Below, one piece after another: positions 2,491-57,497 of a stretch of 64,000 bases of DNA. Positions within the stretch are counted from its first letter, which is position 1. Every line of letters starts with the position of its first letter. A program made the translations under genes and the position numbers. The stretch covers positions 44,489,223 to 44,553,222 of the forward strand of contig NC_092391.1 of the NCBI RefSeq assembly GCF_030028105.1. The letters are read 5' to 3'. Origin of the DNA: Mobula birostris (Eukaryota). The notes beneath the pieces were generated by a model. That model was not told the DNA's origin and ran no database searches. It worked only from the letters and a program-made list of their open reading frames with translations.

Positions 2491-4226
2491 CTACACGGAC
2501 TTTGCATCAGTCTTTTCTGTAGAAGACACTAGCAATGTTGCAGAGGTCTGTGAGTGTCGGGGAGCAGCAGTGAGTGCTGTTGTTATTACAAAGGAAAAAA
2601 TGATAGGCAAACTGAAAGGTCTTAAGGTGGATAAGTCACCTGGACCAGATGGACTACAGCCCAGAGTTCTGAAAGAGGTTGCTGAAGGGATAGCAGTTGC
2701 ATTGGTCATGATCTTTCAAGAATCACTTGATTTTAGCATGGTTCTGAAGGACTGGAAAATTGCAAATGTCACTCCACTCTTTAAGAAGGGAGGAAGGCAA
2801 AAGAAAAAAAAAATTATAGACCGGTTAGCCTAACCTCAGTGGTTGGGAAAGTGTTGAAGTCCATTATTTAGGATCAAGTTTCGGGGTACTTGGAAAGTAA
2901 TGATAAAATAAGTCAAAGTTAGCACAGTTTCTATAAAGGGAAATCTTGCCACACAAGGCAGCCTAACAAGATAAGATCCTATGGCGTTACAGGAAAGATA
3001 ATGGCATGGATAGAGGAATGGCTGACAGGCAGGAGGCACGAGCGGGAATAAAGGGGGCCTTTTCTGGTGATTACTGGTGTTCCTCAATGGTCGGTATTGG
3101 AACCGCTTCTTTTCACACTGTTTGTCAATGATTTAGATAATGGAATCACAAACAAGAGAGAATCTGCAGAAGTTGGAAATCTGAGCAACACACATAAAAT
3201 GCTGGAGGAACTCAGCAGGCCAGTCAGCATCTATGGAAAAAAGTACAGTTGACCTTTCAGGCCAAATCACTTTAGCAAATAATGAAGTGATGGCTTTGCG
3301 GCAAAGTTAGCAGATGATACGAAGATAGGTGGAGGGGTGGGTAGTGCTGAGCAAGCAATGCAATTGCAGAAGGATTTAAGCACATTGGAAGAATGGGCAG
3401 AAGTGTCAGATGGAATACAGTGTTAGGAAATGTATGATGCAGTTTGGTAAAAGGAACAATAGCGCAGACTATTGTCTAACTGGAGTGAAAATACAAACAT
3501 CAGAGATGCAAAGGGACTTGGGAGTCCTCATGTAAGTATTCCAGTTTAATTTACAGTTTGCATCTGTGGTAAAGGCAGCAAATGCAATGTTGCCATTCAT
3601 TTCAAGGGGAATAGAATATAAAAACCAAGGAGATAATGCTGAGTTTTTGTAAGACACTGGTCAGGCCAGATTAAGAGTATTATCAACAGTCTTGGGACCC
3701 ATATCTCAAAGGATGTGTTGTCTTTGAGAGAGTCCAGAGGAAGTTCATGAGGATGATTATAGGAATGAAGGAGTTAAAATATGAGAAGCGTTTGGCAGCT
3801 TTGGGCCTGTACTCACCAGAATTTAGAAGAATGTGGGGGGGATCTCATTGAAACCTACCAAATGTTGAAAGGACTAGATAGGGTGGATGTGGAGAGGATG
3901 TTTCCTCTGGTGGGGTATCCAGAACTAGAGGGCTCAGCTTCAAAATCGAGGGCCAACCCTCTAGAACAGAGGGAAGGAGGAATTTTTTTAGCTAGTGAGT
4001 GTTGAATCCATGAAATGCTCTGCCACAGACTGCGGTGGAGACCAAGTCTGTGGGTATATTTAAAGCTAAAAATAATAGTTTTCTGATTGGTCAGGGCATC
4101 AAAGGTTATGGCGAAAAGGCAGGTATATGGGGTTGAATGAGATCCAGGATCAGCGATGATGGAATGGCAGAGCAGGCTCGATGGGCCAGATAGCCTAATT
4201 CTGCTCCTATGTTTTATGGTCTTATG
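2491..4226 (+). mobile_element. Second decayed CR1 LINE fragment in tandem, with 3' tail
   Basis: KSPGPDGLQPRVLKEVAE, GVPQWSVLEPLLF, GDLIETYQMLKGLDRVD; ends in a CR1-type tail (ctgctcctatgttttatggtcttatg). Interrupted at ~3148-3278 by a Penelope-derived short repeat. Confidence 0.9.
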
Positions 4227-6739
4227 GAAACACCAACTGTAGGTCACTCGATTCAATGCAACATCCTAAGGACAAAGCAAGGCTACTCAGAATGAAATGA
4301 GAACATTTCCTCACACAAAAAGATAAAGGAAATTGGAACATTCCTACAAGTCTAAAATGGACTTTGTACAAACTGTGTAGAAGGTGTATCTGCAATCTTT
4401 AGACTCGCCCACTATATAGGCATCATGGTGCAAAGTTCGCGGGTCATAACTCAGCCATAAAAAAAAACTCATGGGAAGTTGAGTTTATTTACATTTTGCA
4501 GAAACTGTCAATACAATACTCACTTCAAAGTGGTCTAGGTGAACAGAGTTCAGTTCAGGGTCGTAAAGAAACAGACGGGGGAGAAGTAATTTACAAAAGA
4601 TTGGGAAGTACAGCTGATCAGGTTCTGCTATAAGTATTAATTAGTTCCATGTTATTCTGAGAACTGGGAGAGCTCTGAAGAACAGTCATGCTGTGACAAA
4701 TATTTGGCTGCATTTTATTCCATTGCAATGCCAAAAGGGGATGTAAAATTAAGCTCCAATTTCTGAAATTTCATTAATGGAAACAGGTCCTCAATACTCT
4801 GTATCCCACAATGATTTCTTTAAAACTAAAGCACTAACCTAAACAGCAGTGGTGTTACTATTTCACATCCTAAAAGAGCTGTCTTAAGAATCCTTCAGCC
4901 AAGATTAATGGATTGAAAATATGTCTTAATTTTGCTCAATTTTAGTTCTAACTCAGACTCAGCATTCTTGTTTCAGTGTCACCAGATGAAGATTCAAACT
5001 GCACAGATCAAGTGCACGCAAGTTGCTCTCCTCCTGAGTCACCTGCATTCCAAGAACACAGGTTTATACTCACCGCAGTTCAGTCATCCAGGTACTGAGA
5101 ACTCAAATCACACTCCAGAGAGCATAAATTTTAGGGCTATATACTATACAGTATCACAAATTTCAGAGATCTGTCCCATAACCAGCTGACTTCTTTCAGA
5201 GGGCAGTTAAACATCAAGTGCATTGAGGGTCCCAGTCTAGACAAGTAAGCATTGATTTCCCTAACACCACGGCTGGAATGGAGAGACGTTTATGCAATAA
5301 TTACTGTATATTCATGGCCACAGTCAAGATTCTTAATTCTAGATTTAATTTAATTTCCACCATGGGATTTGAACACCTCTGGAATAAGAAAATTCAACCT
5401 CAGTCATGTCAGACTCGGGTGTAGAATCGTTACCTTTCTTGCAGTTTTACCTTCCTATGCTATCTGGTATTTTTATATAATCACCCACATGCATGTTAAT
5501 GTTCAGAACTTTACTGTACAGTTGCTTCTGAATTTTTCCAGAAACTTTTAAGTTTTCAGTAGCAGGTGTCTGGCCACTTCAGTCTGGCTATTTTATGGGT
5601 TAATTGTTATCAGTGGAACAGTCTGAATACGAGATGACCACGGCTACTTTCTCTTTTTTTCCCTCTGTTCTCTCAGTTCTTCCTTCTTTGTTCATTCTTC
5701 GATCTTGCAACACTTAATAAAATGGCTTAGCAAAAAGCTTCCTGCCTCATTCTGGATTTCCAAAGAACCTTTGGATTGCAAAAGCACCAGGATCCAATGG
5801 TAGCTTAGCCAGATGACCTTAACCTCTCCAGTTTCTGATCTTGTCATGTTTAGCTGACTCCCACACTGGATAAGCAGTCATTTCCCATAACCACATACAG
5901 TGAAGACCAGGCTTATGTAAGACCATATGCATTTACTGTCATAGTTGACAAAGGCCAGCTCCAAACACCATCAACAAAACCGCTCAACCGATCTCCTAGC
6001 ACAGCTCAGCTACATTTGAAACCCTTGTCTACGTTTGAGTGTTTTTTTGAAGCTGAAATCACCCAAGCTAGTGGAGAATATTTCATACTGACTTGTACAT
6101 AGTACATTTGAGGTTTCAGGAGTTCAGTGACTCATCGCAGATTACCATTCTCTGCTCTTCTAGCCATGGTATTTGTGTGGCTGGTCCAGGTGAAATTCTA
6201 ACCAGTGGTAATTCCCAGAAAGTTGATGATGGGGATTCACCAAAGTTGAAGCCACTGGACATCAGCGATGGTGGGCTCAATTGCCTCTTGGTGGAATTGA
6301 TAGATATATATCTTCATGGCAAAAACATCAGCTGTCATCTTTCAGACCTTGACTTAATGTTGTCTTTAGTTTACTTCATGCAGGCATCAACTATTTCATT
6401 TGGTAACAGAATAAATGTAATTAAATATTGTACAATCAGCAAATCTCCCCATTTCTGACCTTATGATAGAAGAAAGCCATTAATTAGGCATGAGTAAATG
6501 GTTAGGCTACAAGTCCCAAAAATATAAAACATGCGACAATAAGCAAATAACTTTCTTTTGTGTAGCAATCCTCAGTTACAACGCTCATATCACTATCAAC
6601 ACCATATAGAAGTGATGTAAGTAAAGTAGGAGATTTCAAGCCTGCCTTAACTAGCAGTTTAAAAGCAACTCAGGGGAATGGTGAAGGATTTAGTTTTTCT
6701 GACTGGCTGTTAGGAGAGTGATTGTTCTCCACCTTTCAT

Positions 6740-7180
6740 CAAGTTCAAGTTTGTTTAATGCCGTTTCCTGTACACATGTGTAAGGAGAATGAACGAACTG
6801 TTACCGTGGATTCGATGCAACACAAGAAAAAACACAAAAGATAAAGAACAATAATGATACTAAAAAGCACACAATAAGGGCAGATACACAAGATACCTTA
6901 AATACATAGATTGAATGTATGTTCATAAAGTGATGCTAGGCTGTACATACAGTGACTAATAGGAAACAAAAAAGTCATGGTGGAGATGGTGAGAGGAGCA
7001 GTCTTACTCTTTGGAATCAAACTACTGTACATCTGTAGAATGACATGTGTATGAATGTGCAAAGTCCAGCTCTCTTCAGAGGTGTTGGTGAGCTTTCTTG
7101 ACTGCGTAGGATGTGCTCTGGGTCCATGAGAGGTTGTGCGTGATGTCCACTGTCAGGAGCTTGAAACTGTTTGCAGTTCT
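6740..7180 (-). mobile_element. Rex1/Babar-like LINE 3' remnant
   Basis: Starts with the caagttcaagtttgtttaatg tail typical of these repeats on the - strand; degraded RT-end sequence near 7050-7170. Confidence 0.5.
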
Positions 7181-9385
7181 AATTAACTTGTTAATTTGCT
7201 TTTAAATCAGAAAATTATGTTTTACATAGAATATCAGGCAGTATCTTTGAATTAATGACCCTTTATCATACTCAAATGAATCAGAGATGAACAAATCTTA
7301 GAAAGTAGAAACAGAAGACAAGAGAGAAAAAATAGTGGCCAGGTAGAATACAGAAAGATTATATGACCAGAATGGGACTCTGTCTGACAAATGTAGGCAA
7401 AACTGAGTTAATGGAGACAAAGCAGGTACTCATTCTCCAAAGTTATTTTATGGTGCTGTTTCCAGAAAGCCATAATGAGCTAACGTGCCAACGAAGATGA
7501 TCACAAACCTCATCTTTTAACCAAGCAGATTACAACTTCTGTTTTTAACACAGTAACTCCACAATGATCCAGTACTCTTGGGACTTTTGTAGTACCAGAC
7601 CAATAGATTTCCCAGATCAGCCTTATTAATATGCTTTTATTTTCACTTTTTAAAATATGCAGTATGCTAAGTTTTCCAGTAAACCTGGCAAATTTAAAGG
7701 GAGTGAGAAACAGAGGAGAACTCCAGAGTCTGACTACGACAAGTTACCTGACCCCAGCACAAGCTCTAACCGTGACTGCATTGCAGATCTCTGGTCTGGC
7801 TACCCATTCCATCTGCATTCTGAACTCCCAGCTCACACGGGGCAGATACCAAACCATCTGGATTTAAATCTAATACCAAGTTCAACAGCCAGATAGTGAT
7901 TCTGCTACTCATTTATACCTCCTCTCCATCTCACTGCTTTAGTTACCCCTCTTTTGCCTTGCCACATCATCCTTGTCATCCAAGCACTAGTCTCTCCTCC
8001 ACGGTTCCTTTTTGTTGCTTGGAGGAACAGCTGTTGGAAGATGACACAACACACAATCTGCTGAAGGAACTCAACAGGCCCAGCGGCATCTGTGGGGAAA
8101 GGAAATGTCTGTCCTCACGAAGGGTTTTGACCCAAAATGTCAACAATTCCACTTCCCTCACAGATGCTGCCAGAGTTCCCCAGCAGATTCTTCGTTCCTT
8201 CCTACCATTTCCCCAACTGCGGGAAACTTGTTACCTTTCAGATTTGTTCTAGTTATAATTAAAGGTTATCAACTTTAAACATTTGTAATTGTAGTTCATT
8301 CCCATAGATGTTGCACAACTCATTGAGTACCTGCAAATATTTTTGACCTTTACTTCAGATTTCTGGCATCAGCAACATCTATTTTAATCTTGCTATGTAC
8401 TTTTCACACATTCCACTAATGTGACACATCCCATTTTAACAATATCCCACTAACCCCAAAATAATTAGCAGTATACATCCTTGTAGGGTGAAAATCAGAC
8501 AATCTTGGTTGACACTCAATGTTAACATCAAATTTGGGGTGGGACGAACAAAACTGAAATCAGCCTCTCACGTAAAGCCTGCAATGCGGGAGATTCAACT
8601 CCTGCGTTAAACCAGCTACTCTCACCTGTTGATGATTGACAAGTGTCAACTCCAATCAAAATCCAGACAGTGAATAGCTATGCTAATCAGACAAAAATCT
8701 GCTAATGCACAAGTAGCTTTGCTCACACGTAGTGAACGGGATAATTCACAACCTTTCCAGGTGAGCCATTTTATTACTTGCTGTGTGATCCAAATAAGTT
8801 ACTGTTCATCAGGAGATATCAGATCACAAATTATCAGCATGTTCACAGCTGTAATAAATGAAAGATACAGTGGTGAAATTAATGTAGAAGATGTAACCAG
8901 TCTAAAATTAAATCCAATTTGCTATACCAATAGGAAGATCATGATAGGTTAAAGAATTCTGTTTCACAATCTCACGCTTCACATCATAGAAAGCCAGGCT
9001 CTTGCACTCAGTCCCAATAATCTCCACTACTACTCACATGTAGAAATAATACATTCCCTCGGTACTCACAAATGGGAATATCATATATACCAGTACGACC
9101 CTCACACGAGATCCAGAATTCTTGCCCAGATAAAGGTGTTCTTCATTCTGCACCTGACCTGCCCTGCCCTGCAGTTACACCGTGTCCATGGTAACTATCC
9201 TTGAATCTGTGGGACTTGTGCAAAAACACAATACATTATCTCCTTTGTCCCACCAAGAATTTAAAGAAATAGTACGGTTTTGGAGATCCTCCAAAAGCTC
9301 CTGCAGAGCAAAGTTTCAAAAACACCAACATCCACATTCTCTGCACAAAGAATCTGAGAGAGTAGAACCTACAAAAAGCAACATA

Positions 9386-12210: not shown

Positions 12211-12214
12211 ACTG

Positions 12215-16060: not shown

Positions 16061-16939
16061 TTCTCCCGCTTTGTCAAACCAGTGTTAGTTTCCTCCGAAC
16101 TTCAACTGTTCCTCCGGAGTAGTTTGCAGGACTTATTTATTAACATAAGTAAGTCATATTAACATTAGCTAATACAGGAAAGTGGGGATGAGGTAAAAAC
16201 GTCTTATTTTATACTGAAGTAGGAAGGTTGGACAGATGATCACTTCCGGTTTTGTTGTTACTTTATTATTCTTCTCCTTTACCATTTCTGTTTCTATGTT
16301 TATCTGTAACCCTACAGGCAGATAAACGTTATCATTTATGTACGGTCGGCTCATAGCCAAAGCCATTCTTAATTGCACCGAAGAAGTTCGTGAGAGGGAC
16401 AATGAAGATTGCGCTGTTGGATTGGATTCCTCAGCATTTAATCCAGCAGTGGAAGGGGAATCGAGATCAGGATGCTGAGTAAATAAGGTAAAACACTGCC
16501 CATACAGGAAATCTGGTGTAAAACAGTACATGTGTTGACAGAAATGTAATCAGGTAGGACTGGGATGTGCCCTCATAATCATTCAAAAATATGTGCATAG
16601 AAATGCCTGTGCACTTTGTCCTCAATAGCACTGAACAAGATAATACTCCTCCAAAAGCCAGGAAACGTAGCACCCTCTGCATGCCTGCCCTGCCATTAAT
16701 CTAAAGCACCCATTGCTCCCTGCATTCATTTTTGCACACCACATTCAACCACGCCTTGTCCTCCAACTTGATCCTTCTAATAGGCAGACATACTGGCCTG
16801 TGAGGGTTCTGGCCGCAGATGCTGGAAATCTGAAATTAAAAAAACAGAAAATGCTCTCAACACTCAGCAGGTCAGCCAGCACCTGTGGAAAGAGAAACGA
16901 TATTAATATTTCTGGTCGGGGACACCTCCTCAGTGACGA

Positions 16940-17925
16940 TGAGGTGCAGAACAGGTTTACCAGGATGCTGCCTGGATGAGAAGGCATGTGCCGTAATGAC
17001 AGGTCGCACAAAGTTGGATTGTTTTCTTTAGAATGGTGGAGTCAGAAGGGAGATCTGATTGAAGTTTATAAGATTTACAAGAAGCATAGATAGAGTAGAC
17101 AGCTGGTATATTTTTACCCAGGGCTAATATGTCTAATACCGGAGGCCATGTACATAAGGTGAGAGGGGGTAGGTTCAAAGGAGATGAGGGGCCTCCTCTA
17201 CTGTCGAGATGAAGCTACACTCAGGTTGGAGGAACAACACCTTATATTCTATCTGGGCAGCCTCCAACCTGATGGCATGAATATTGACTTCTCAAACTTC
17301 CGCTAATGCCCCACCTCCCCCTCGTACCCCATCCGTTATTTATTTATTATTATTATTATTAATTATTATTTTTCTCTCTCTCTCTCTCCTTTTTCTCCCT
17401 CTGTCCCTCTGACTATACCCCTTGCCCATCCACTGGGCTCTCCTCCCCCTTTCTTTCTCCCTAGGCCTCCCATCCCATGATCCTCTCATATCCCTTTTGC
17501 CAATCAACTGTCCAGCTCTTGGCTCCATCCCTCCCCCTCCTGTCTTCTCCTATCATTTCAGATCTCCCCCTCCCACTTTCAAATCTCTTACTAGCTCTTC
17601 CTTCAGTTAGTCCTGACGAAGGGTCTCGGCCCAAAACGTCAACTGTACCTCTTCCTAGAGATGCAGCCTGGCCTGCTGCGCTCCACCAGCATTTTGTGTG
17701 TGTGTTGCTCAAAGGAGATGAGTTTTTTTTTGACGCGTAGAGTCTGGATTGCACTGCCGGGGGTTGGTGGAGGCATTCAAGCAGCTCTTGGATAGGGTCA
17801 TAAATGTGCAGAAAATGGAAGGAAGTGGACTTTGTGTCGGCAGAAGGGACTAGTTTATCTGGACAGTTATTATTAATTTAATTAGCTTGGGCCAAAAGGC
17901 CTGTTCCTGTGCTGTACTGTTCTAA
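16940..17925 (+). mobile_element. CR1 3' fragment split by a Penelope-like insertion
   Basis: VQNRFTRMLPG...; the CR1 sequence resumes after 17722 and ends in ggcctgttcctgtgctgtactgttcta. Confidence 0.8.
17189..17708 (+). mobile_element. Penelope-like element 3' end (GIY-YIG C-terminus plus pLTR with a mutated hammerhead)
   Basis: Encodes EATLRLEEQHLIFYLGSLQPDGMNIDFSNFR*; flanked by the 14-bp TSD tcaaaggagatgag (17175-17188, 17709-17722); hammerhead-like agtcctgacgaagggtctcggcccaaaacgtc with GAAA changed to AAAA. Confidence 0.8.
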
Positions 17926-18597: not shown

Positions 18598-18705
18598 CAT
18601 AGTCAATGTCCTGCTGAAGGGTCTCAGCCCGAAACGCTGACCGTTTACTCTTTTCCACAGATGCTGCCTGGCCAGCTGAGTTCCTCCGGCATTTTATGTG
18701 TGTTG
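18598..18705 (+). mobile_element. Short Penelope-derived insertion inside a CR1 tail
   Basis: TSD caaaggctctta / caaaggctttta (18586-18597, 18706-18717); degenerate hammerhead gtcctgctgaagggtctcagcccgaaacgctgac. Confidence 0.75.
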
Positions 18706-20291
18706 CAAAGGCTTTTAAGAGACACTTAGATTGGCACATGGATGTGATGAAGATGGAGGGATATGGACATGGTGTAGGTAGGAGGGATTAGTGTTTGGGT
18801 GTTTTTGATTTGCTTTTTAGCTGGTTCACCCACAACATTGTGGAGCAAATGGCCTGTTCCTGGGTTGTACTCTTCTAAGTTCAATGTGCAGAGAGGAAAA
18901 TGGAACTAACTCTTCAGGTGAATGACCTCTCAGAACCCTGTCTAAAGATCATCGACCTGCTGCTCCTCTCACCACAGGTGCTGCCTGACCTGCTGAGTAG
19001 TCCTAGCTTTTTCTCTCCTCATTGTGATCCAAGACTTTTATGTTGGCTGGAGCGCTGTCTCTACGACTTTGTAAGTTTGATACAGAAAATCCATCAAATG
19101 CCAGGTGCTGAAAATCTGAAAATTTAAAAAAAGAGAGAACGTGGTGGAAACATTCCACACTGCCGGTAGTATTTGTGGAGAAGATAAAACAGAGTTAAGG
19201 TTCCAGTGAAAAATTCTTCAAAATAACTAGTAAAATGAGAAATCGAGTTGGTGTTGATTTGCAGAGAGGGTGTGTGTGGGGGGGGGGGGAGGGGATGTTA
19301 GGACAAGGGCTTATCTCCAAAATGGTGTGTCCAGGGCTGCTGAGGTGATTCTGACGACGAGTCTCCACCTGAGTCGTTGGCTCTATTTGCCTTCCCATGG
19401 GTACAGCCTAACCTGTCGCGTATTTCCAACATCCTTTATTTTTGTTTTAGATCTGCAGCATCTGCAGTTGTGCTGGGGTTTTCGCTTACTGAGCTGGTCC
19501 CGCTGTTCACCGAGCCGTCACGGTGCTTTATTAAAAATCCAGAGAGACACCAGTAACGTGATGCGCTTCCAGCGTTTATGTTTTCTATTTCAGAGTGCTG
19601 CTTGAGGAACAACTTCAATACGAGACCCCAAGCGTTCATGGGAGGGACCTTGCCGGTTTGAGTGCATTTTCCACACGGAGGCGTGGAGTCTGTGGCGGGA
19701 ACACGGGCAGCAGGGAGTGCCTGGGGGTTGGAGGGGCAGGGAAAGTAAAATTGCGACAGCCACCCAGTACATCAACAATGACGTGGGGTGCCGCCGGGGA
19801 GAGGCAGTTGGTGAGCGATAAGAAAGTGAGAGGAGGAAGATCTAGTCCCACTGCAGACTATTAGTCACCATGCTGGATACACAAGTCAAAGCCGGTTTTG
19901 TTTAAGTTGTGAGGTGACACAATGTGGCTGGCTGATCTGCAGCTACAGCAGTTAAATGCCAGTCACACAGCTGTGGGTCTGAAATCACGTCTGTATACAG
20001 ACTGGATGATGATAGCATATTTCCTTCCCTAAATGATGCCAGTGAAACAGACTGGTTCCAGCCTCTATTACTGACGCAGCCTTTTCTTTAACAGAAGCCC
20101 AACTGCCGTGGCAGGACTCAGACCATGAATCTGTACTCTAGATTACTGACGGAGTAATCCAGTGGCATGGCCAATATTCTACAATTGTCGTAGATCTTCT
20201 TGCACAGACCTTCTCATCTCTCAGCAGCTCACCGTCCCTGAGATCCATTAAACAGTCTTGCGGTTCTGCTGCTGGTGGTCTTTCCGCCAGC

Positions 20292-20376
20292 CCTCCTCAG
20301 CCCCACTCCAGTGCCCGCACTCCCACCACAAGCTCCTCAGCCCCACTCCGGTGCCTGCATGCCCATCACAAGCTCC
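20292..20376. repeat. ~40-bp tandem duplication
   Basis: ctcctcagccccactcc(a/g)gtgcc..cacaag occurs twice. Confidence 0.75.
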
Positions 20377-20519: not shown

Positions 20520-21350
20520 ACTCTTTCAAAGGTTCAAAGTACATTTATTGGCAAAGTATGTACAACCATGAGATTCGTCTTCCCAGACACAGCCACGAAA
20601 CAAAGAAAACAATGGAACCCATTCAAAGAGACACACCAACGCTCCCTCACACAAACAAAAACACATCACGCAAACAGCAACAAAAAAAAAGACAAATGAA
20701 AAATACAGAATGTAAAGCACAAGAGTCCTGATATACTCAGTTCAGCTCTGTGTTGGTTATCCGCAGGCTGCCTCGGTTCAAAGTCGTCCAAAATAGCAAC
20801 CAAAAAAGGAGCGACCAGGAAGCAAAAAAACATAACATGAACTGCAGAGCCCGATCCACAGACCGTGTCAATTAAACCCTACCCAAGACCCCAGACTCCG
20901 GCACCATCTACCGACAGCATTGAGGGAGAGAGAGACTATTCGAACACAGGGACTTTCCCTTGGGGAGAGAGACAGGGACCGTCACACGCAGGCACCCTCC
21001 GCTGGCAGCGGTGAGCGAGAGGCTGATAGACGGCGCTGAACGCCGGCTTGCCCTCCGCACTTTCCAAAATTCCTTGGAGCTTTAATTGCCGAGATCGTAG
21101 AGAAGTGGAGTCGATCACGGGCTCACTCCTGTCTCCAGGCTTCTCGGAGCTTTAGTCGTCGAGGTCGTAGGGAAATGGAGTCGATCCCTACCGTCTCCAG
21201 GCTTCTCAATCTCAAGGTCACTCACTTTGCTCAAAGCAAAGCACCAGATCACTCAATAGATCACCAAAATGCCGATCACAGACTCCAACATTTGAAAGAA
21301 AAAAAAAGACAACAATAAGAAATTATAAAGATTTGTCTTTCAGGCTCTGA
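20520..21350 (-). mobile_element. Unclassified interspersed repeat (non-LTR-type 3' tail)
   Basis: Tail ttcaaaggttcaaagtacatttatt; internal ~65-70 bp tandem duplication at 21076-21207; 20941-21065 recurs inverted at 23640-23765. Confidence 0.55.
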
Positions 21351-21485
21351 AGAAAATGCTCCGACCATGGCCATATCTATCTTCTTGATGGGATGATTAA
21401 CTGCCAGAATGCAAAAGAGCTTGCAACACACATCAAAGTTGCTGGTGAACGCAGCAGGCCAGGCAGCATCTCTAGGAAGAGGTAC

Positions 21486-21521
21486 AGTCGACGTTTCAGG
21501 CCGAGACCCTTCGTCAGGACT
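21486..21521 (-). ncRNA. Minimal type I hammerhead ribozyme motif (Penelope pLTR)
   Basis: Reverse complement reads AGUC CUGACGA AGG gucucgg CCU GAAAC GUC GACU: intact core, stem I AGUC/GACU, stem II AGG/CCU, palindromic ACGU stem III. Confidence 0.7.
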
Positions 21522-21919
21522 AACTGAAAGAAGAGCTAGTAAGAGATTTGAAAGTGGGAGGGGGAGGGGGAGATCCAAAATGATAGGAGAAGACAGGAGG
21601 GGGAGGGATGGAGCCAAGAGCTGGACAGGTGATTGGCAAAGGGAATATGAGAGGATCATGGGACAGGAGGCCTAGGGAGAAAGACAAAGGTGGGGGGGGA
21701 ACCCAGAGGATGGGCAAGGGGTATAGTCAGAGGGACAGAGGGAGAAAAAGGAGAGTGAGAGAAAGAATGTATGTATATAAATAAATAACGGATGGGCTAC
21801 GAGAGGGAGGTGGAGCATTAGCGGAAGTTAGAGAAGTCGATGTTCATGCCATCAGGTTGGATCTCCTCCTCCCCCTCCCCCTCCCACTTTCAAATCTCTT
21901 ACTAACTCTTCCTTCAGTT

Positions 21920-21955
21920 AGTCCTGACGAAGGGTCTCGGCCTGAAACGTCGACT
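21920..21955 (+). ncRNA. Minimal type I hammerhead ribozyme motif (Penelope pLTR)
   Basis: agtc ctgacga agg gtctcgg cct gaaac gtc gact: CUGANGA and GAAA boxes, GUC cleavage triplet, paired stems I and II. Confidence 0.7.
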
Positions 21956-24239
21956 GTATCTCTTCCTAGAGATGCTGCCTGGCCTGCTGCGTTCACCAGC
22001 AACTTTGATGTGTGTTGTTTGAATTTCCAGCATCTGCAGAATTCCTGTTGTATGCAAAAGGGCTTGATGGGTTCCCACAACTCTGGAACAGGCATCAATA
22101 ATCACAGTCACAAGTAACAGTAGTTTGTCAATATAGAATTCAGAGCCATAGTATGGACTTCTACACACCAGGGCTGTGCACAGCAGGAGCTGTACCCCGC
22201 AACTCAATTTGAGGGATGAATGCCATTCCTTATCCAAAATAAAAACAAAAAAAAAGCTAGAAAAGCACCACAGGTCATATAGTGTCTGTGTTATATCTGA
22301 AACTCTTCATCAAAACCGAACTTTGATGGTGTCTCGGACTTGAATTATTAACTGTTTCTCTTCTCATGGATGCTGACTGGCCTGCTGAGGTTTTCCAGCG
22401 TTTTCTGTTTTTAATTCAGATATCCAGGATTTTTCTCTTTTTTTGATTTTCATTTCTTATCCAAAGGCTTGCCCTGGGACATCAGTTGGAAACCAGCAGT
22501 TACAGAGTGTGACTTGCAAGGAGTGTCACCTGCCTCACACAGAAACTGCGATTCAGACTTTGGGTACCGGAGGCTGTGGCTCTGAAACTCTACACACAAA
22601 CACAGAGGTCAGCCCCTGACTGGTATACTCCCTCTGCCATTCGAGGGATGTTAGCAGCAAAAGGAGATGTACAAGGAACTGTTTGATCACAGAGGCAAGT
22701 GTAAGAGGTAATGTGCAAGGGGAAAGAGAGTGAGCGGGAGAAAGAGATTCAGGGAGCACATTCTAGAAATCAGAGTTTTGTCAACTTAAGGTAAGTCTAC
22801 CAGCAATGGAATTGGAATTGGTGTATTATTGTCACATGTACTAAGATACAGAGAAAAGCTGTTCGTACAGATCAAATCAGTGCATTGTGTATTGAGGTAG
22901 GACAAAGAAAAACAGAACGTGTTCATGCTTCAGTTAGGGTCATTGCCAGAAATGGAGTGAGCGATTTGGAAAGGAGTTGCTGTGGAAGAGTTTTGATGCC
23001 CGTCTATTTAACCCGGGCGCGAGGCTGGATTCCTCCAAGTGCCGAGCCGATTTGGTGAGGACAAGAACAGTGGCTGGGTGTGTTGTTGCTGTTGCATTCG
23101 GGTCCTGGAATGTGGAACTACCCAGAGCTCGGACGATGTAGACGTCGGCCCAGATAGACTGGAAGCCCAAGGGTCAGGTACAGAGGCAAAGGTAAAGCTG
23201 ACTTTGCTCGCTTTCCCGCGAATGTTCACTTATTTCTCTGCGACACCGAGGCTGTGAACTGATCTGGCTGCCAGGCATTTCTGCCCTGCTGGTGTGATGA
23301 CTGGGGACCAAGGCTTGGCCTGGGCCTACTCCAGCTGCTCTGGGAGTGGATCTGGGATTCAGTCTGGTTTGGAATGCTGTTGGCTTGCTTCAACTGTTTG
23401 CACAGTGTGTTTTTTCCCTCTCCTTCCCTGCACGGTGGTTTTTGGTCTTTCTTTATTGGGTTATCCAGGTCTCTTGCTTTGTGGCTGCCTGTTAGCGGAC
23501 AAATTTCAAGGTGTACATTCTTTTATAATAAACGTGATTTAAATCTTAAATGTTGAATCTTTGAATTACAATGCAAAATAAAGTGCTCTGTAGCACTTCA
23601 CAGCCCGTAACTTGTTATTCAGTGATCAGAGTCTGCTGGCAAAAGTGCAGAGGGCAAGCCAGCATTCAGCACCGTCTGGCAGCCTCTCGCTCACTGCTGC
23701 CAGAGAAGGGTGTCTGCGTGTGATGGTCCCTGTCTCTCTCCCAAAGGAAAATCCCTGTGTTCGAGCTTTTCAAGCTGGCAGAAGCTGGAACTACCTCAGT
23801 CTCCGAAAGAATCCAAGATGAAGCTCAAAGTGGAAGTCTCCAAAGCAGAAGGGAGACAGTCCGTATTCTTTTGTATAAACTCCCTGCGTTCTTGAAATGT
23901 CTTGAGGTGTTTCACAACCAAAGAACCACAGCTGATGTGAGACTACAGTTGACGTGTATCACAGTTGCAAATAAGAAGCATTTTATGTTGGAGGGCTGGA
24001 ATTGACCAAAGAACTTGTTGCTTTGGTCTCAGCTGGGGACATGGAACTTTCTACATCACTTGTACGGCAGACACATAACTTTCTATATCTACAGCAGGTG
24101 GTTTCCTGGCCAAAAAAAAAACATTTGTTGGTATCTCCCACTGTGATGCACTCCTTCAGTTTGGTGGCAGAGTCAGCCTGATGGGGTGTTTGGGTCTAAA
24201 AGAGAGCTTAAGCCTTGGGGTAAGAAATGAAGTGGCCCT

Positions 24240-24945
24240 TAGAGCAAAGAGATTGCATATAGAAGTAGGAAGTCTTGCTGTTACACTGAGAATTGGTGCT
24301 ATCAAACCTGTATACAGCTTTGGTCTTGTTATTTAAAGCAGGAACTAGTTGCATTGGAGGCTGTTCTGAGAAGGTTCACAAGAATCATTCCTCAAATGAA
24401 AGGAGTTTTCTCTACAAGAGGATGAGTAGCCTGAACACTCACTGGACTTTAAAGAGTAAGAGGTGATCTTCTTCCGATAAGGCTCAACAAAGTAGGTGCT
24501 GAGGGATAGACAAACCAAAACTACAGATGCTAGAAACCTAAAAATGCTGGCAACCTTTAACAGGTCAGGCTGCATCCCTGAAATGAGAAATGGGGTTCAT
24601 GGCATGTCTTTGACCTGTTGAGTGTTGAGAGGATGTTTCCCTCGTGGTAGAATCTAGAAGTGGGGCAATAGTTTCAAATTAAATTCTCATCCATTTAAAA
24701 TGGCGTTGAGGAGGAATTTCTCTCAAAGGGTGATGGATCTTTGGAATTATCTACCCTAGAACCATAAAAGCTGAATTGCTCAATATATTCAAAGCAGATC
24801 TGGTCTGATTTTTGGACCATAGTGAGGTTGAGTCTAATGAGGATTAAGCAGAAATGTGGCCATCAGATTCAACCAGACCAGCCATGATCTTATTATGTAG
24901 CAGAGTGGGCTTGAGGACACATAACCTACTCCTGCTCCCATTTCT
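24240..24945 (+). mobile_element. Old CR1 3' remnant
   Basis: gttctgagaaggttcacaaga, gaggtgatctt, gaggaggaatttctctcaaagggtg, tail ctactcctgctcccatttctt. Confidence 0.65.
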
Positions 24946-26127
24946 TACTTTACTATTGAGTAGTAATGTATCCAAAACTTTCTGGTATCTTAGCAGTGCT
25001 GGAAATTATCCACCCCCTTTTCTATTCTTTAGATATTACCAATTCTATTCAGGTAAACAAAAGATGTTATTGTAACATACACACACACACACATTGGAAT
25101 GCAGAAAGCTCTTGAACTGCATGTTCCACACCTTAATTCATGTCACTGACATCTACATCTGTATCCCACACCCTGCATGGTATTTACTAAAACTTGTTTC
25201 CATAACATACAAACAGACATTTTCATTTAAGCTTAGTTTGAAAAACAGATGAACAGCAGAAAATTTAAATAGGGACTTTAATTATTAACCACGATACTAA
25301 AAAGAGCAACTTAAGCAGACACACATTGATTTATAAGTAGTTTCTATGGTCTGTGATGGGTGTGACTGGGTACATGAATTATGTGTGTGTGTGTTAGTGA
25401 GACGAGTATGGTGACATTTGCAGGCACAGCACATTAAACAAGGGAACTGAATGCAGGGAGTAAAGGCAAAGGCTCACAGAAACATGCTGTCCTTCTCAAG
25501 TTTATCACACAATATGCTTTGCTTTTCAAGGTTCCACAATGAGAGGAATCTGTGGTTCTACAGGTTAGAGTGGCAGAGGAGTTTGGACATAGCAGGGCTG
25601 TGAAAACATCAGTGGAAATCATTTACTCCCTAGTTATAACACTGCATCAGCAACATTCACAGAAACCGTGACACGCTTGCACACGTACTTGAGGAGTGGG
25701 CATCATTAGCGCAGCAGGCAATTCTTGCCAGTGTCCAGTCCTGAAGAGGGGTCTCGGATCAAAACGTCAACTGGTTATTCATTTCCTAGGTGCTGCCTGA
25801 CCTGCTGAGTTCCTCCAGCATTTTGTGTGTGTTGCTCTGACGAGCCACCTTGACCAAACAACGATAGCAGTTTTCTTTTCTTAGCTCTTCCTTAAGGAGG
25901 AAGAATTACTTACATTTTAATTCAATCTTAAGGGTTTGGAGTTTCAAGATCTTAGGAATGATCCTCCAATAACCTGCTAGCCAGGAGAATACACATCACA
26001 GTAGTCTCTGTTTTATTATTTCGTACATTATTATTGCACAGTATTGCAAATCGGTAAATTATTATTGTGTATATTATTCTGTACTTATTATTAATTCATA
26101 TTATTATATTTATCATTATTATATTTA

Positions 26128-26562: not shown

Positions 26563-26949
26563 TTATTATTGCTAAGTGTGTTTTTAAAAGTTGCTGCTGT
26601 AACAAAATAATTTCCCATTCGGGATCAATAAAATGCTTATCATTAAATCCTCACCCACCCTGGACTTTCTCTCTTTTCCCCGTCCCACTGCGATGAAGCT
26701 ACGAAAGCCTGAAAGCAAGTTCAGCTTCTATCCTGCTGCTATAGAACTATTGAACAATTAATTTACTAATCTTCATCGTAACAGTTTTTGATATAAGTTT
26801 TCCAAAATGCTTCGTTAGAACTTGAATACATTCTCCAATCCATTAACAGAACTGCTTCTCTACTATAGTTTGAAAACTTGGCTGACAAGCAGTCACTGAA
26901 AACCTTGCTCTGCTTATTGTGGTAAAGGGTTAAAGTGCAGATGAACATA

Positions 26950-28587
<1,638 letters not shown>

Positions 28588-29640
28588 TATGTCAGTGTCC
28601 TACTCCTGACCTTTGCAAGGTGCACTTTCATCCTGCGTCAATGGCACTGCCCGAGAATCAGCAAATGCTGAGAACATGCAGCATTCCAATTCAGTTTCGT
28701 GGTATGCAATGATGTAGTTTAGTTAATGCATTGGGTGTAACTCTTCCTTTCCAGTTTTCTGCAAATAGATTACACCCGAAATGTTAATCCTGCTTTGCCT
28801 TTCAGCTTCTGGTTATATTATTCAACATTTCTGAAACTTTCTGAAGACTTAAAAGGGAAACCTTTAAATATTAATGATTCTTCAGTTACAGACTTCCAAC
28901 CTGAAAATGGTCAATGTGTCCTAAATATGTTTTCTCTCCAATTCTGTTACTCCAATGCCACAAGCTCTTACTTAGTGCAGTAACCTTTAATGTGGCACCT
29001 TATTAGAAAATCAAATGCACCATACTGTATATACAAAGTCTCATTTATCCATCTCATCCATTACATTCTTAAAGGACTCTAATACAATTATCAAACATTA
29101 CTTTTCTTTGGTAAAGTCATGCTGGATCTGCTTATGGACTTTCCAAATATCCTGCTGCAAAAATTATACTTTTCTGATGACAGATGGCTGGTCTATAGTT
29201 TCCTCGTTTCTCTCTAACACCTTTTCTGAATTATATTTATTTTCCAATCTGCTGGAATCTCTCTAATGTTCAATACATTTTGGAAAATTAGAATCAGGTT
29301 TAATGTCACATACATACATCATGAAATTTGTTGTTCTGCGGCAGCAGTACAGTGCAATATATAAGGGAGTGTAGACAGCAATACTTTACAGTACAAGCAA
29401 CCCGGGATCAATTCCTATCACTACCTGTAAGGAGCTTGTATATTCTCCCCATGACCATGTGGGTTTCCTCCAAGTGCTCCAGTTTCCTCCCACAGTCCAA
29501 AGATTATTGTAACTTGTCCCATGATTAGGCGAGGATTAAATTAGAAGATTGCTGGGCAGTGCGGTTCGAAGGATCAAAAGAGCCTGTTCCACACTGTACC
29601 CAATAAATAAATAATTAAAACTGTAAATTACTCTAAGTAA

Positions 29641-48662: not shown

Positions 48663-48664
48663 TC

Positions 48665-51583: not shown

Positions 51584-51700
51584 CTACGAATAGCGTCTTT
51601 CCCGGTATCCGATTCCTCGCTCGGGCGCCGCGTCTTTCCCCGACTCTCGGTACCGCGCCAGGCGGAGATTGCGTCCCCGCCGACCAGCGCTCCGCCCCGC
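51584..51700 (-). other. TMEM203: Putative non-coding exon 1 of TMEM203 (5' end approximate)
   Basis: Donor TAG|GTAAGG at 51583 on the - strand within the CpG island; matching acceptor upstream of the CDS at 40176. Confidence 0.6.
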
Positions 51701-51769
51701 CGATGGTCCCACTCACTCTCCCCAGCAACAGCTCCCACTGCGCAGCCGCACGATTGGTCCCTCCTCTCG

Positions 51770-51822
51770 CGAGACTGCGCGCGGGAGCCCGGCGGCGGCG
51801 GTGTCGCAAAACGTCGGGAATC
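51770..51822 (+). other. NDOR1: Putative non-coding exon 1 of NDOR1 (5' end approximate)
   Basis: Donor ATC|GTAAGT at 51823. The NDOR1 ATG sits directly after an acceptor, so an upstream exon is required. Confidence 0.65.
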
Positions 51823-51835
51823 GTAAGTATGGGAA

Positions 51836-52013
51836 AGGAGTGAGGGGTGTCTGAGGGTGACGATAGCGAATGAGTGAGAGTAGGAGAGGAGTGAGGGGTG
51901 TTTGAGGGTGACGATAGGGATTGAGTATCTGAGAGTAGGAGAGGAGTGAGGACTGTCTGAGGGTGACGATAGGGAATGAGTGAGAGTAGGAGAGGAGTGA
52001 GGACTGTCTGAGG
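51836..52013. repeat. Minisatellite, ~51-55 bp unit, ~3.5 copies
   Basis: Unit aggagtgagg(gg/ac)tgtctgagggtgacgatagggaatgagtgagagtaggag. Confidence 0.9.
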
Positions 52014-53635
52014 GAGTTGTGGGTGAGGAAGGGGAAGGGAGGAATGATGGTTGGGGAGGTAAGTGAGGAGTATCTAAGGTGTATGAGGTTTATTTGAGGG
52101 TAGGTGGGACATGCCCGTGTGCGGGTCAGTTGAGTGAGAGTGGCTGAGGTGACCGAGATGAGTGAGGGATGTCTGGAGGGGTGAGTGAAGATGAACGTTG
52201 ATGGGTTCTCAAGTGAGGGAGATCTCGGGTAGGTGAGGATAGTAAGGGGCTTGGATGTGGGACTGTTGAGATAAGTAAAGGGGCTGCCAAGAAGAGTGAT
52301 GAGTGTCTTGGAAGGGTCGAGGGTGATAGAGGGCATGAGGTTCTGGAGTTGGTTGGTGATGAGAGTCAGAGGGAGGTAGAGAGAGTAAAACAGCCCTAGC
52401 ATATTGAAAGTGGTTGGGGAGAGTAGGGAGGTTTAGGATGGTTTGGCAAGTGAAAATGATATGGGGAGAGAAAGGGAGCATGGAGGGTGGGGGGGAAGAC
52501 ACCTGTTCATGTAATCTGGAAAGTGTGACGAGATAATATTGCAAACCTATTTAGTCCATGAACACTAAATGAAAAAGTGACCAATTGTGAAGAACTGTAA
52601 TCTTGTGCACATAATGGGAAGCAAGAGGTGTTACATCTACTATGCTATAAGCAATTGATGTAAACAGTTAAAGTGTTGTGGTTGGTAGATGCCCTTTCAG
52701 GGCAATGTGCACTGTGGAGTTGGAGTGAGAGTGAATTTTACAGTCAGAAGTACTCATGAGTTAAATAGTAGAGTGTGGAAGGTCGAAATAAAGGGCTTGC
52801 ATTTAGTGAAGGATGGGGGATGTTCCAATATTTGCTGGACTATGTGTTACTGATGTCAATAACACGTTCTTTCAACACTGCATGTGACATTATGGGGCTA
52901 TTTTAACAATTGTGCTTTGTAATTGTTACAATCTATATTTGCCTTCAGCTCAAGGACATAATGAACTGAAGAGTCCATTTCTGTGTTGTATGACTGTATC
53001 AGCCAACGTGTACATTTATGGTTTGGTATACACAGCCAGGAGTTGCTGTACACCAAGATAATATGTTTTTTCTTCACTATATGCACCGAACAACTTGTCC
53101 TTAGTGATTGAAACTTGCATCTCAACTTCACTTTCTTTTGCTCTCGATCATCACCCTTCTGTCCTCTCCCTCGTGAACTCTTTTAGCCAGACCTAAGGGT
53201 AGTCCTCAGATGCATTTAATTCAGCAGCTGATTACCAGTTTCGTTCGTTCAGCACAACATCCTGGACTGAAGGGCCTGTTCCTGCGCAAAACTGTTGTAT
53301 ATTATCAATATATAAAATAAATTCCAAGTAGCAATACTGAGATGTGATGTTGACCAACATGTGGTAGTGTCTGGAAATTTGTAGCAAGATATAACGGGTC
53401 TTTAGCAAAGGACATGGTGTTGTTTTTATGATCAACAATCCAACTAAATGTGCATCCAGTTAAGTACTTTATATTCCTGTGCTCAATTATACTAAGATGT
53501 AATTTTCACAGATGTTTTCGTTAATGGCAGCCATTCTTCAAGCAGTTGGTGTAACCAGTTCAGTGATGGTGAATGGTGTAAACGTGGCTAAGTAATCCTG
53601 ACCAGTTCTGCATCAGATATTCAGGTCTTGTCCAT

Positions 53636-54145
53636 AAGACATCTGAGCAAAATTGGGCCATTTGGCCCATCGAGTCTACTCCACCATTCCACTATCTTCC
53701 CTATCTATACCATTCTCCTGCCTTCTCTTATGAACCTCTGACTAATAAACTACATCAACCTCCATTTTAAATATAACAAGTGATGTGGCCTCTACCCCTG
53801 TCTGTGGCAATGATTTGCACGTAATCACCACTCTTTGGTGAAAGAAATTCTTCCTCATCTCGGTTCTAAAGGGACATCCTTGTGTTGTGATGGGTCTGGA
53901 TTTCCCCCCCCCCCCACTATAGGAAACATCCTCTCCATGCCCACTCTTGTTAAGGCTTTTCATTATTCGATAGGTTTCAATGAGAGTCCCCTCCCCAATT
54001 CTTCCAAACTCCAGCCAGCACAGGCCCATGCTCCTCATAGTTAACCCTTTCATTCCTGAGATCATTCTTGTGAACCTCCCCTGGACCCTCTCCAATGCCA
54101 GCACATCCTTTCTTTGATCAGGGGTCCAAAGCTGTTCAGAATACT
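53636..54145 (-). mobile_element. CR1 3' fragment
   Basis: LALERVQGRFTRMISGMKGL...FRTEMRKNFFHQRVV. Confidence 0.85.
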
Positions 54146-54281
54146 ATCACAATGTTACTTATTCAGGTGTTTCTGTTAACTGTTGGCTTTGCATGTTGAG
54201 AGGTGAAATGACTTTATGATGTACAGTGGTATCAAAGATTATGGAGCATTGATGCAAAACGGTGGGAGTTATTTTCATATA

Positions 54282-54772
54282 ACTTGGAGGAGGAACAACT
54301 CTTATTCTGTCTGGGTAACCTCCAAACTGAGGGCATGAATATCGATCTGTTCTCATTCCAGTGAACAAATATTCCCCCTCCCCGCCAACTCATTCTCCAC
54401 TCTGACCTTTCAATTCTTCTCAGCTGCCTACTATTTCCCCTTGGGTCCCCTCCTCCTTCCCTTCCTCCTATTGTCCACTCTTCTCTCCTATCAGATTCTT
54501 CCTTCTCCTGCCAACCTTGCCCACCCACTTGGCTTCACCTTACACCTTCCAGCTAGCCTCCTTCCCCTCACCCTCCTCCCACCTTTTTATTCTGGCATCT
54601 TCCCCCTTCATTCTCAGTACTGATGAAGGGTCTCAGCCCGAAACGTTGACACCATAGGCTCCTCTCCCACTCTCAGACACTCCCTCCATGGAAGCTGCCT
54701 GGCTTGCTGAGTTCCTCCAGCATTCTGTGTGTGTTGCTTTAAATTTCCAATATCTGCAGACTTAGTTATTTT
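54282..54772 (+). mobile_element. Penelope-like 3' end with hammerhead-like motif
   Basis: ttggaggaggaacaactcttattctgtctgggtaacctccaaactgagggcatgaatatcgat (GIY-YIG end); ctgatgaagggtctcagcccgaaacgtt at ~54620-54647. Confidence 0.75.
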
Positions 54773-55552
54773 TATAAGCTGTTACTAAACTCTCATGCAA
54801 GGATTCAGCAAACTGACGTGTACAGAACGGACAGGGTCTGGTTGAGTGAAAATATACTGACTCCTGGGTGTTGCTTCTGGTTTGTACAGTTTCTACCCAC
54901 AACAGACTGACAGCACTCCAGAGTAGGAGAGGCAAGCACAGGCCAGCGTTATTGTAGAGTTCTCACCTTTCTGCCCATTGTCAGTGTCTATGATGAAAAA
55001 TCAAACAGATGAAGTTTCCCTTCTGGAAGCCCGTTCTGAGCCAGGGACCTGTCCTTCCCATGGCTTCACACAGTCTGAGACCTGGCCACTCAGCTAACTT
55101 CAGATGCGATGGCAGAACCCACAGCTCTCTCATTTGTACAAAGGCTGGGCAATTCCTCCCTCTCAGTAACCAGGGGCTGATAAGCCATTGCGAAAGGTCA
55201 CTGGCATGGCACGTGGAAAGCAAGTTCAAGTTTGATTGTCATTCAACCGTACATGAATACACAATACAGCTACTGGTCCATTCTCCAGAGGGGAAGTGTT
55301 GACCACCAGCAGTATCAGTCTGGTGGATGATCCATCTAAATATTACACCCAACTCTAAATCTTAGCCCTGTTTCCGTTGCCACAGATACAGCCTTACCTG
55401 CTGAGTGCTTCCAGCATTTTGATACCTTTTTTTAAAATTTAATATTTTTAGCACCACAGTTTTTTGACATTTTCTAATACTACATAATCTGTTTGTTTAA
55501 TCACATTCTCAGCTGATTTTCAGATTCCTTGACCCTGACAGCTATAGCTGTC

Positions 55553-55679
55553 CTGCCAAAGGGTTTTAGCCTGAAAAGTTGACAGTACTCTTTCCCTAGA
55601 TGCTGTCTGGCTTGCTGAGTTCCTCCACCATTTTGTGTGGGTTGCTCGGATTTCCAGCATCTGCAGATCTTCTCTTGTT
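55553..55679 (+). mobile_element. Short Penelope-derived insertion
   Basis: TSD tatagctgtc (55543-55552, 55680-55689); starts at a degenerate hammerhead. Confidence 0.75.
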
Positions 55680-56984
55680 TATAGCTGTCTCCTTTTCTGG
55701 TGTTTTCCCTGGAATTTCTCTGCCTTCATTCCCTGAATCCTAATGGTTGCACACTCGAGTGGTTTAAAACACAAGTACAGGATGAAGCAATTGGTTGTAG
55801 TCTGATTATTGTTATGTGTCATTTGCTGTTGAAGTGCACAGTCCTCTCTCAGAACTGCCCAGTCCTCCAGAGTTGCCCTGATTGCCTTTGCTCCTTTTCC
55901 CTGCCACCATCAGCTCTTTCCCTTTGATCATCACGAAGTCTGAGGAGCTCATGCACTTATATCATAAATTCAAGAACAATTACAAACTCCGTCTCGAATG
56001 GCAAACCTTTCTCTGTCAGATACACCATGTGTTTCTGTGTTACTGTTCTCTCCTCCTAGCTTGGAACACCAATGAGATCTACTCCATGCTTTTATCTAAT
56101 GCAAGCTCCTACCCCCATACTGACTAATACTGGACGTGACTCCCTCTTCTCTTTCTTTCCAAAATCTCTAGTCTGTCTTCAAATTACTTGAACAACTTCA
56201 CCTGATTGGGGCCTAATTTTCCAACAACTCTACATTTTAACCCTTATATCCCCCTCACCCCTCACCCCTTCTTGCTACAGTTTGGTTCCTCAGTCTGTCT
56301 GAGTGACTGCTAACAAAGTCATATTGATATTTGCTTTAACAGTGTCTTGGTAAACTTCACTCACTCCTTCTGTCCTTGCCTTTGACTTCGTTCAACATCT
56401 GACATGATCGATCATGCCATTCCCTTGCATTGTACAGCTGGGTCGGTGGGAACACATCCACCAAGTCCTATGCTTGCTGTTTGTTGCCAGAGCTTCAAAT
56501 GCAATATTCCTTCACTATTGCCTTTGCGATCTCCTTTACTACCTGACAGCCTCATCAAACAACAGTGCCAGTTTTCCACAACTATGCTTAGCACTCGGTC
56601 ATTTTGCATTCCTCTTGTACCTCGGTCTCCTTCAGGTAAACGCTGATGAAATCGACACTGTGAGCATCAGTCCCTGGCACAGACTCTGCTCCCTTGCTAC
56701 CCCCTTCTACCTCTTTTACTGTGTCAGACTGAATCTGATCATTTGCAAAGTAGCATTCTCTTTGCATGTGGATGGACTTCCAGTGCCGGATTATCTCCAT
56801 CTAAAAGCTGCCTACTTTCCCCTCTTGCTTCAGCCCATTTTCTACTGCAGCACATTTTGATGGTGTTGCTGTCTCTCTACAAATGCTACCTGAGCTAAAG
56901 AGTATCTGTAGATTGTTGTTTATTTATTGAACAAGTAATTTCTCTGCTACTAACAATTCATTTACTGTTTTATTGCTTGCTCAG

Positions 56985-57035
56985 ACAGGACTTTGTTCAA
57001 ATTGTATTCTGAAGCTGATACTGTGGTGATGTATG
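56985..57035 (+). other. Candidate 51-nt 5'UTR exon of NDOR1
   Basis: TACTAAC at 56948-56954, pyrimidine tract, CAG ending 56984, donor ATG|GTAAGT at 57036. Confidence 0.5.
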
Positions 57036-57364
57036 GTAAGTGTTTCATTAGACTGTCACGTTCTGTAGCTATAATTAAACCTGTACACTATTCACAGAAT
57101 GGCAGCACAGCTACTCACTGGTTAGAGCAGCTGCCTCATAGCTTTGAGCATCCAAGTTCAATGCTGACTTTCAGCACAGTCTGGTATGGAGTTGGCTTGT
57201 TCTCCCTGTAACAACACATCTCTGATTTCACACCACGGGCTGATAATGTTTGTTTGGAGGCCAAATGGATACTGTAAATTGCTTGCAGAGTAGATGGGGA
57301 AAATCGGGAGTGGGGTAGGTGGAGTTGATGGGGATATGAGGGGAACACTGCGTTGTGTAGATGT

Positions 57365-57497
57365 AAACAACAGGAATTTTGCAGATGCTGGAAATTCAAG
57401 CAACACACATCAAAGTTGCTGGTGAACGCAGCAGGCCAAGCAGCATCTGTAGGAAGAGGTGCAGTTGACGTTTCAGGCCGAGACCCTTCGTCAGGAC
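57365..57497 (-). mobile_element. Short Penelope-derived insertion with intact hammerhead core, inside a V-SINE
   Basis: TSD tgtgtagatgt (57354-57364, 57498-57508); - strand reads agtcctgacgaagggtctcggcctgaaacgtcaact. Confidence 0.8.

Follow-up and report, generated by a model that had tools for sequence, protein, structure and literature searches.

The stretch analysed here (the window) comprises 64 kb of the 4.0-Gb genome of Mobula birostris (G000:C26:44489223-44553222), has a repeat content like that of a cartilaginous fish and carries dispersed short repeats that begin at a minimal type I hammerhead ribozyme (HHR). As judged by alignment, these repeats are pieces of an abundant Neptune-type Penelope-like element (PLE), and not a separate ribozyme element. 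Throughout, numbering takes the first C of the HHR core as position 0; stem I is formed by -4..-1 paired with +28..+31, and the predicted cut lies after GUC, at +27. A young short copy at 57365..57498 (minus strand), running from -4/-3 to +130 and thus made up of the HHR and a 'tail', is 98% identical to a long copy and is flanked by an 11-nt target-site duplication (TSD; 57508-57498/57364-57354). Its hammerhead (57463..57498, minus strand) has stem I, core, stem II and a palindromic 2-bp stem III when compared by eye with the description in PMC4209133, and would be cut between 57467 and 57466.

Four further short copies are older or decayed. One at 55550..55679 (plus strand; -3/0 to +130) has a 10-nt TSD (55543-55552/55680-55689), 3 nt of which overlap with the start of the element, and one at 18598..18706 (plus strand; -3 to +94) has a 12-nt TSD with one mismatch (18586-18597/18706-18717) and is itself preceded by 10 extra nt that by eye are possibly a tiny inverted piece of +24..+33. 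The copies at 25737..25840 (plus strand; -4 to +98, by alignment) and 3148..3278 (minus strand; +6 to +129) were searched for a TSD and none was found; the boundary of the latter is approximate, because its core is decayed and it aligns only from +6. Two long copies reach back into the C-terminus of a GIY-YIG endonuclease (EN): 17189..17709 (plus strand) extends from there, with a translation matching the EN end, through the 3' untranslated region (UTR) and the HHR to +95 (14-nt TSD at 17175/17709), and the older copy 54282..54764 (plus strand), which carries an insert behind the HHR, extends from the EN end to +130 (13-nt TSD at 54267/54764). In the first of these, a branch-point-like motif, a pyrimidine tract and a YAG that ends at stem I, all of putative function, occupy 17589..17610 (plus strand). 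The seven copies named in the original prediction, with the positions and strands of the five short ones, the three TSDs of 10-12 bp and four 5' boundaries at -4/-3, in stem I, were all recovered. The list was incomplete in that the window has 19 profile hits, which by profile and alignment include a young head-to-head twin at 21423..22051 (minus arm -334..+94, plus arm -55..+127) and an old one with short arms at 8023..8190. Additional copies, old and decayed, of related PLE ends lie at 16812-16937, 19349-19481, 22320-22432, 18960-19014, 24521-24594, 55368-55421, 61055-61110 and 62872-62941.

The 'tail' had been taken for the 3' tail of a Penelope-type element. However, full-length copies run beyond +130 without a break to an ATG at +166, and the 'tail' is therefore the 5' UTR. 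One long copy, translated in two frames, matched the Pfam families RVT_1 (E 5e-5, below the cut-off of that family) and GIY-YIG (24.2 bits, above cut-off); an earlier Pfam scan at E 0.001 had given no match. At locus L017 one open reading frame (ORF) covers the reverse transcriptase (RT) and C-terminal GIY-YIG regions, as expected of an EN-containing (EN+) PLE. A Cys-rich RT-EN linker (C-x4-C-x2-C) was read in the translation and fits what the available part of PMC8557442 describes for Neptune/Nematis; the clade label Poseidon was dropped on inspection of this linker. An HHR or tail of variable extent lay upstream in 11 of 20 ORF-start loci, as in a partial-tandem pseudo-long terminal repeat (pLTR), and 70 more ORF-start copies were examined. 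An optional tail of 30-40 nt, inverted 5' copies and TSDs were also found; the accessible text of PMC8557442 and PMC3846280 gives a pLTR, an optional 30-40 bp tail and an inverted 5' copy as features of EN+ PLEs. In two copies (L041 and L061) the N-terminus of the ORF, at about -3350..-2450, holds a ~212-bp tandem repeat of variable copy number.

By eye, the core boxes of a minimal HHR, stems I and II and the palindromic stem III are present; the minimum-free-energy fold of the monomer differs from the active fold, and an Rfam scan of the window gave no match at E up to 1. A short interspersed element (SINE) with a Pol III head (tRNA, 5S or 7SL) was rejected, given that the short copies align over their whole length to the PLE and that Rfam matches were absent. 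A PDB search gave no useful match. A profile made from ten window copies was applied to 75 evenly spaced 10-kb stretches of the genome (750 kb), in which it had 139 hits, or ~740,000 genome-wide by extrapolation. A young-subfamily 49-mer had 23,358 exact matches and an older-subfamily 32-mer 11,715, compared with only 295 for a 30-mer at +146..+175.

We then examined where copies begin and end, using a tail-anchored sample that comprised the first 100 matches listed, in genome order on one chromosome, for a young-subfamily pattern at +46..+94 (102 rows less 2 duplicates). Since this pattern lies downstream of the HHR, the sample was drawn without selection for the 5' end; 30 loci ranked by a query that begins at stem I were kept out of the statistics. 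Of the copies that reach +8, 35 of 90 end at -5..+8 (0.028 per nt), and 40 of the 95 that reach +16 end at -5..+16. Over -6..-300 only 22 of 55 end (0.0014 per nt), which makes the hotspot ~20 times the background (binomial p 5e-36, on rows that are not fully independent, since both arms of inverted twins were counted). Genome-wide 5' ends are peaked and not uniform, and the earlier view that the clustering exceeds random truncation is borne out. Base by base, 9 copies start at -4, 5 at -3, 4 at -2, 1 at -5 and none at -6..-9. The peak at -4 is the first base of stem I and precedes the predicted GUC cut by 31 nt, close to the ~30 nt given before. Simple self-cleavage had already been doubted as the origin of this edge, and just 4 of 99 copies have a 5' end near the cut (+25..+34); at +28 there are 2 of 100, both within the palindrome and hence ambiguous. 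A TSD score of at least 9 was reached by 22 of 100 real copies versus 4 of 298 with swapped flanks. With the ORF start as the anchor instead (70 copies, those listed first among the 295 matches), 11 of the 39 reaching +8 ended at -5..+8, a fraction similar to that in the tail-anchored sample (Fisher p 0.32).

Among 40 short copies, 26 were arms of head-to-head pairs, each pair being counted twice; the other 14 were simple monomers, of which 9 had a TSD and 5 lacked one. Thirty older-subfamily copies showed a similar mixture of long, short and inverted forms, with TSDs left unscored. At two loci (L270 and L271) the inverted arms are joined precisely through the 4-nt complementarity of stem I (+32 to -4). 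Young copies also have a weaker second cluster of 5' ends at -317..-340 (8 of 33), near the ORF stop and at a motif like the start of the HHR core. The 3' ends of the 100 young copies fell at +94..100 (23), +120..126 (14) and +127..141 (62), with one elsewhere. These two main ends resemble the two internal RT starts reported in vitro for PAc, a Poseidon element of Anolis carolinensis, in the available part of PMC11167929. Many ORF-start copies (L276-L345) end at about +186-202 or +283-306, which are possibly further internal RT start sites.

A G is enriched directly in front of A-4. Genome-wide, TG precedes A-4 343 times and TA 78 times, against a background TG:TA ratio of 1.26. At a control start at 0 the TG:TA counts were 51:28 in raw form and 19:24 after rows templated by an inverted arm had been removed by eye, and the A-4 counts differed from both (Fisher p 0.001 and 3e-7, respectively). 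At non-inverted loci, G:A was 15:5 at A-4 and 2:7 at the control (p 0.014). An untemplated G of this kind has been ascribed to cap copying in L1 and SVA, according to the part of PMC3287187 that was available. The bases at -4 are compatible with three features at once: they open stem I, resemble a 3' splice site and fit the initiator consensus YYANWYY with A at -4. The 3' splice-site-like bases, with branch point and pyrimidine tract, are conserved across old and young subfamilies. A spliced template with a first exon was rejected: the extra bases that separate the element from its TSD are heterogeneous, number 0-4 nt in most cases (up to 13) and are not common to different copies. The retention of A-4 and G-3 after untemplated bases, together with the lack of a shared upstream exon, argues against such a template. 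Cleavage in a shifted register, with GUC at -3..-1, was rejected by eye as well, since stem I cannot then form.

A second line of evidence came from doubled copies. Sense duplications that join +27 to -4 were first met at two loci, and a genome-wide pattern admitting sense junctions at +23..+34 yielded 90 junctions, whose classes were assigned by eye. Exactly at +27 lay 36 of the 90, among which 4 are segmental duplicates of one variant, 5 are joined to A-8 and 3 to -9. The others comprised 5 ambiguous between +27 and +28, 14 at +26 (9 with an extra G), 3 at +23/24, 12 at +30, 2 at +31/32, 12 at +33/34 and 6 unclear; +25 and +29 were not represented. In two tandems the units repeat with periods of 32 and 36 bp. 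Microhomology is absent for +27 to -4 in the young subfamily and amounts to 2 nt for +27 to -8. The second pass was read at 30 of the 90 loci. Its start, and hence that of the doubled piece, fell within -5..+16 at 29 of them and at -13 at the remaining one, and the 3' UTR was never entered; all 30 pieces were short, whereas -15 is normally passed by 54 of 95 copies (p 1e-9). Template switching, one of the two processes that the original prediction had proposed at the ribozyme fold, does occur at the edge, though only rarely, and speaks for a genuine RNA 5' end there. The simplest reading of the junctions is an end-to-end jump from that end onto a short RNA, -4..+27, the predicted 5' cleavage product of the ribozyme, which suggests that doubled copies may arise by jumps onto this product. 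Alternatively, the RT may have re-entered within folded stem I, as the +30 and +34 peaks would favor, or may have jumped onto short promoter-proximal RNAs, as a four-unit tandem of -4..+57 would favor. This tandem (L439; G000:C6:156663004-156663153) consists of four head-to-tail 62-bp units with an HHR core in each, and from its make-up is a retrozyme-like tandem apparently born from the front end of a PLE.

From these sequence patterns we consider it probable that transcripts with a capped start at A-4 or A-8 are copied to their end and inserted, with priming on two strands. The RT of the autonomous Neptune-type PLE would start inside the RNA, at about +95 or +130, and run off the capped 5' end at A-4, the first base of stem I, so that the front 100-135 nt are inserted. 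A-4 (and A-8) would be RNA polymerase II start sites. Long copies could be primed in the downstream repeat or arise when the RT jumps onto a longer RNA, and extension of both nicked DNA strands would give the head-to-head pairs. More tentatively, in ~1-2% of A-4 starts the RT may jump from the 5' end to the 3' end of the 32-nt piece -4..+27. If that piece is released by the hammerhead, the ribozyme would cut at least some RNAs in vivo; whether such cleavage feeds the jumps is a question on which we find the evidence about equally balanced.

Several results weigh against this account of a capped start and run-off. Copies that extend past -5 (55 of 95 tail-anchored, and 28 of the 39 ORF-anchored ones reaching +8) would need read-through RNA or jumps. 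The G excess was weak by eye in two unfiltered lists of 100 (C 50, G 33, A 17; and C 31, G 27, T 26, A 16), in part because some subfamilies carry a natural C at -5, and of 20 hand-picked G rows 9 were inverted arms and 2 were 7-nt stutters. The bases at the edge resemble a conserved 3' splice site, and for D. virilis the available parts of PMC2377424 and PMC4209133 place the start site 46+75 nt (121 nt) upstream and have helix I begin at an intron end. The RNA side consists only of assembled contigs of runs presumed to be RNA (6 runs, two sets), which had no start or end peak and are uninformative on the transcription start site; no GT..AG joint was seen among the joints listed (15 of 139 and 15 of 16), which are equally uninformative on splicing. 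Joints to -4 in the first of the two sets resembled older-subfamily copies whose 3' UTR has diverged. Jumps at +30 and +33/34 (12 of 90 each) and the units of L439 that end at +57 do not fall on the predicted cut. Finally, PAc ribozyme mutants remain able to insert in vitro, and the accessible text of PMC11167929 reports an absence of reads that end at the cut site.

Other explanations of the edge were compared with the capped start. Arrest of the RT at the ribozyme fold was the other process put forward in the original prediction. The block, on a longer RNA, would be the HHR fold or a bound protein (the PLE protein, or splicing factors that occupy the AG and the pyrimidine tract). The edge is indeed the 5' end of stem I and adjoins the conserved branch point, pyrimidine tract and YAG, the stop probability is alike in tail-anchored and ORF-anchored samples, and the +30 and +33/34 junctions flank the base pairing with A-4. 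However, an RT would reach stem I from its 3' side (+31), where just 4 of 99 copies stop, whereas the observed stops sit on the far, 5' side. Moreover, a leaky block should be passed in ~57% of second passes and was passed in 0 of 30, and arrest does not predict the extra G. We therefore regard arrest as unlikely. Processing, by a 5'-3' exonuclease halted by the fold or by cleavage linked to a 3' splice site, could give a real RNA 5' end at -4 without initiation. It would account equally well for the sharp edge and the short second passes, and it fits the D. virilis layout, with helix I at the intron end, in the available text of PMC4209133. On the other hand, it supplies no cap and hence no extra G; splice-site cleavage would give starts at -2 or -6, whereas A-4 and G-3 are retained behind untemplated bases; and neither a spliced genomic copy nor a common first exon was seen among the loci examined. 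An origin by processing is accordingly improbable too.

The original prediction had also raised a discrete, non-autonomous HHR-headed element of retrozyme-like kind; such an element, or a SINE-like one, would amplify from its own masters. The very high copy number in the sampled 750 kb, the clean TSD-flanked monomers (9 of the 40 short copies) and the net divergence between short and long copies (permutation p 0.07) would be in keeping with it. These points are outweighed by a tree of 104 young-subfamily rows and 124 columns, with weak support, from which copies starting after +5 and tail-anchored copies ending before +120 were left out. On this tree short and long copies are interleaved: the 20 short rows require 18 changes, whereas shuffled labels require 17.4 on average and are at least as low in 381 of 500 cases, so the short copies do not form the lineage of their own that would be expected of a non-LTR retrozyme. 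Some short rows are identical to long rows, and no column separates the two convincingly (lowest p 0.02 of 9 tested). In addition, ORF-bearing copies stop at the same boundary (11 of 39), inverted pairs supply 26 of the 40 short copies as their arms, and the units are not HHR-to-HHR tandems, sense tandems being rare stutters. For the young subfamily a discrete element is largely refuted, and we give it very little credence overall. Least credible of all is that the edge is an alignment artefact of a conserved HHR beside a fast-evolving pyrimidine tract. This is a genuine risk in old copies, where upstream homology is patchy, and it still applies to the 3148 copy. It is refuted for young copies, since long ones align through the pyrimidine tract and since TSDs adjoin the boundary far more often than with swapped flanks.

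Three other repeats lie in the window. Inverted 110-nt arms at 20954-21063 and 23642-23751 (88% alike, 2.6 kb apart) flank the young PLE twin and are possibly a DNA-transposon remnant. A 1.65-kb element at 26945-28592 has long inverted ends that are 94-95% alike and an internal frame near 27790 that resembles a Tc1/mariner transposase. At 51820-52168 there is a purine-rich tandem repeat with a 51-55-bp period.

The element, its hammerhead and internal initiation are already known. As far as the accessible parts of these sources go, Neptune-type EN+ PLEs (PMC8557442, PMC3846280) share with the present element the RT and C-terminal GIY-YIG, the Cys linker, the partial tandems, a pair of 3' ends separated by ~35 nt, the inverted arms and the TSDs, but their 5' ends are given as variable truncations, whereas here ~40% of young copies share one edge. 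PAc (PMC11167929) likewise has two-site internal RT initiation that defines the tail, with the HHR just upstream, and both strands are cleaved and extended in vitro as we propose. Its ORF, however, starts inside the HHR and not at +166, and the available text reports 0 reads at the HHR cut site and no mapped RNA 5' end. The minimal hammerheads of metazoan pLTRs (PMC4209133) have the same type I motif and palindromic stem III, mostly as single, dispersed copies that are linked to truncated PLEs; cleavage and circularisation are proposed in the part seen without in vivo evidence, whereas here genomic junctions coincide with the cut site. Non-LTR retrozymes (bioRxiv 10.64898/2026.07.22.740005, available in part) share the type I HHR, the relation to pLTRs and the non-coding nature, but are tandem repeats with an HHR per unit, unlike the dispersed monomers and inverted pairs seen here without a lineage of their own. 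Neither a fixed PLE 5' edge at the HHR nor cut-site junctions were found in the literature searched, a search that most subscription papers and supplements lay outside; Fig. S2 of PMC11167929 could be relevant to 5' ends.

In retroviruses, minus-strand strong-stop DNA is primed near the RNA 5' end, runs off at the cap and is then transferred. A comparable step is conceivable for vertebrate PLEs, although we hold it to be rather doubtful: the RT would copy from the tail site to the cap and then insert the stub or jump to an RNA 3' end made by the HHR. Jumps to a long cleaved RNA would regenerate the pLTR, and jumps to the 32-nt capped fragment would leave the +27/-4 duplications. The analogy is functional only; with nicked target DNA as the primer, the run-off product is itself inserted. 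The available parts of PMC2377424 and PMC8557442 leave open how PLEs rebuild their pLTRs and which role their hammerheads play. The fixed 5' edge provides a base-exact prediction of the RNA start, and the +27 junctions provide one of in vivo cleavage and template jump; if true, the duplications that join +27 to -4 would be fossils of ribozyme activity in vivo. A capped start with run-off insertion would also account for the huge numbers of solitary hammerhead motifs in such genomes, which are at risk of being mis-annotated as SINEs or retrozymes.

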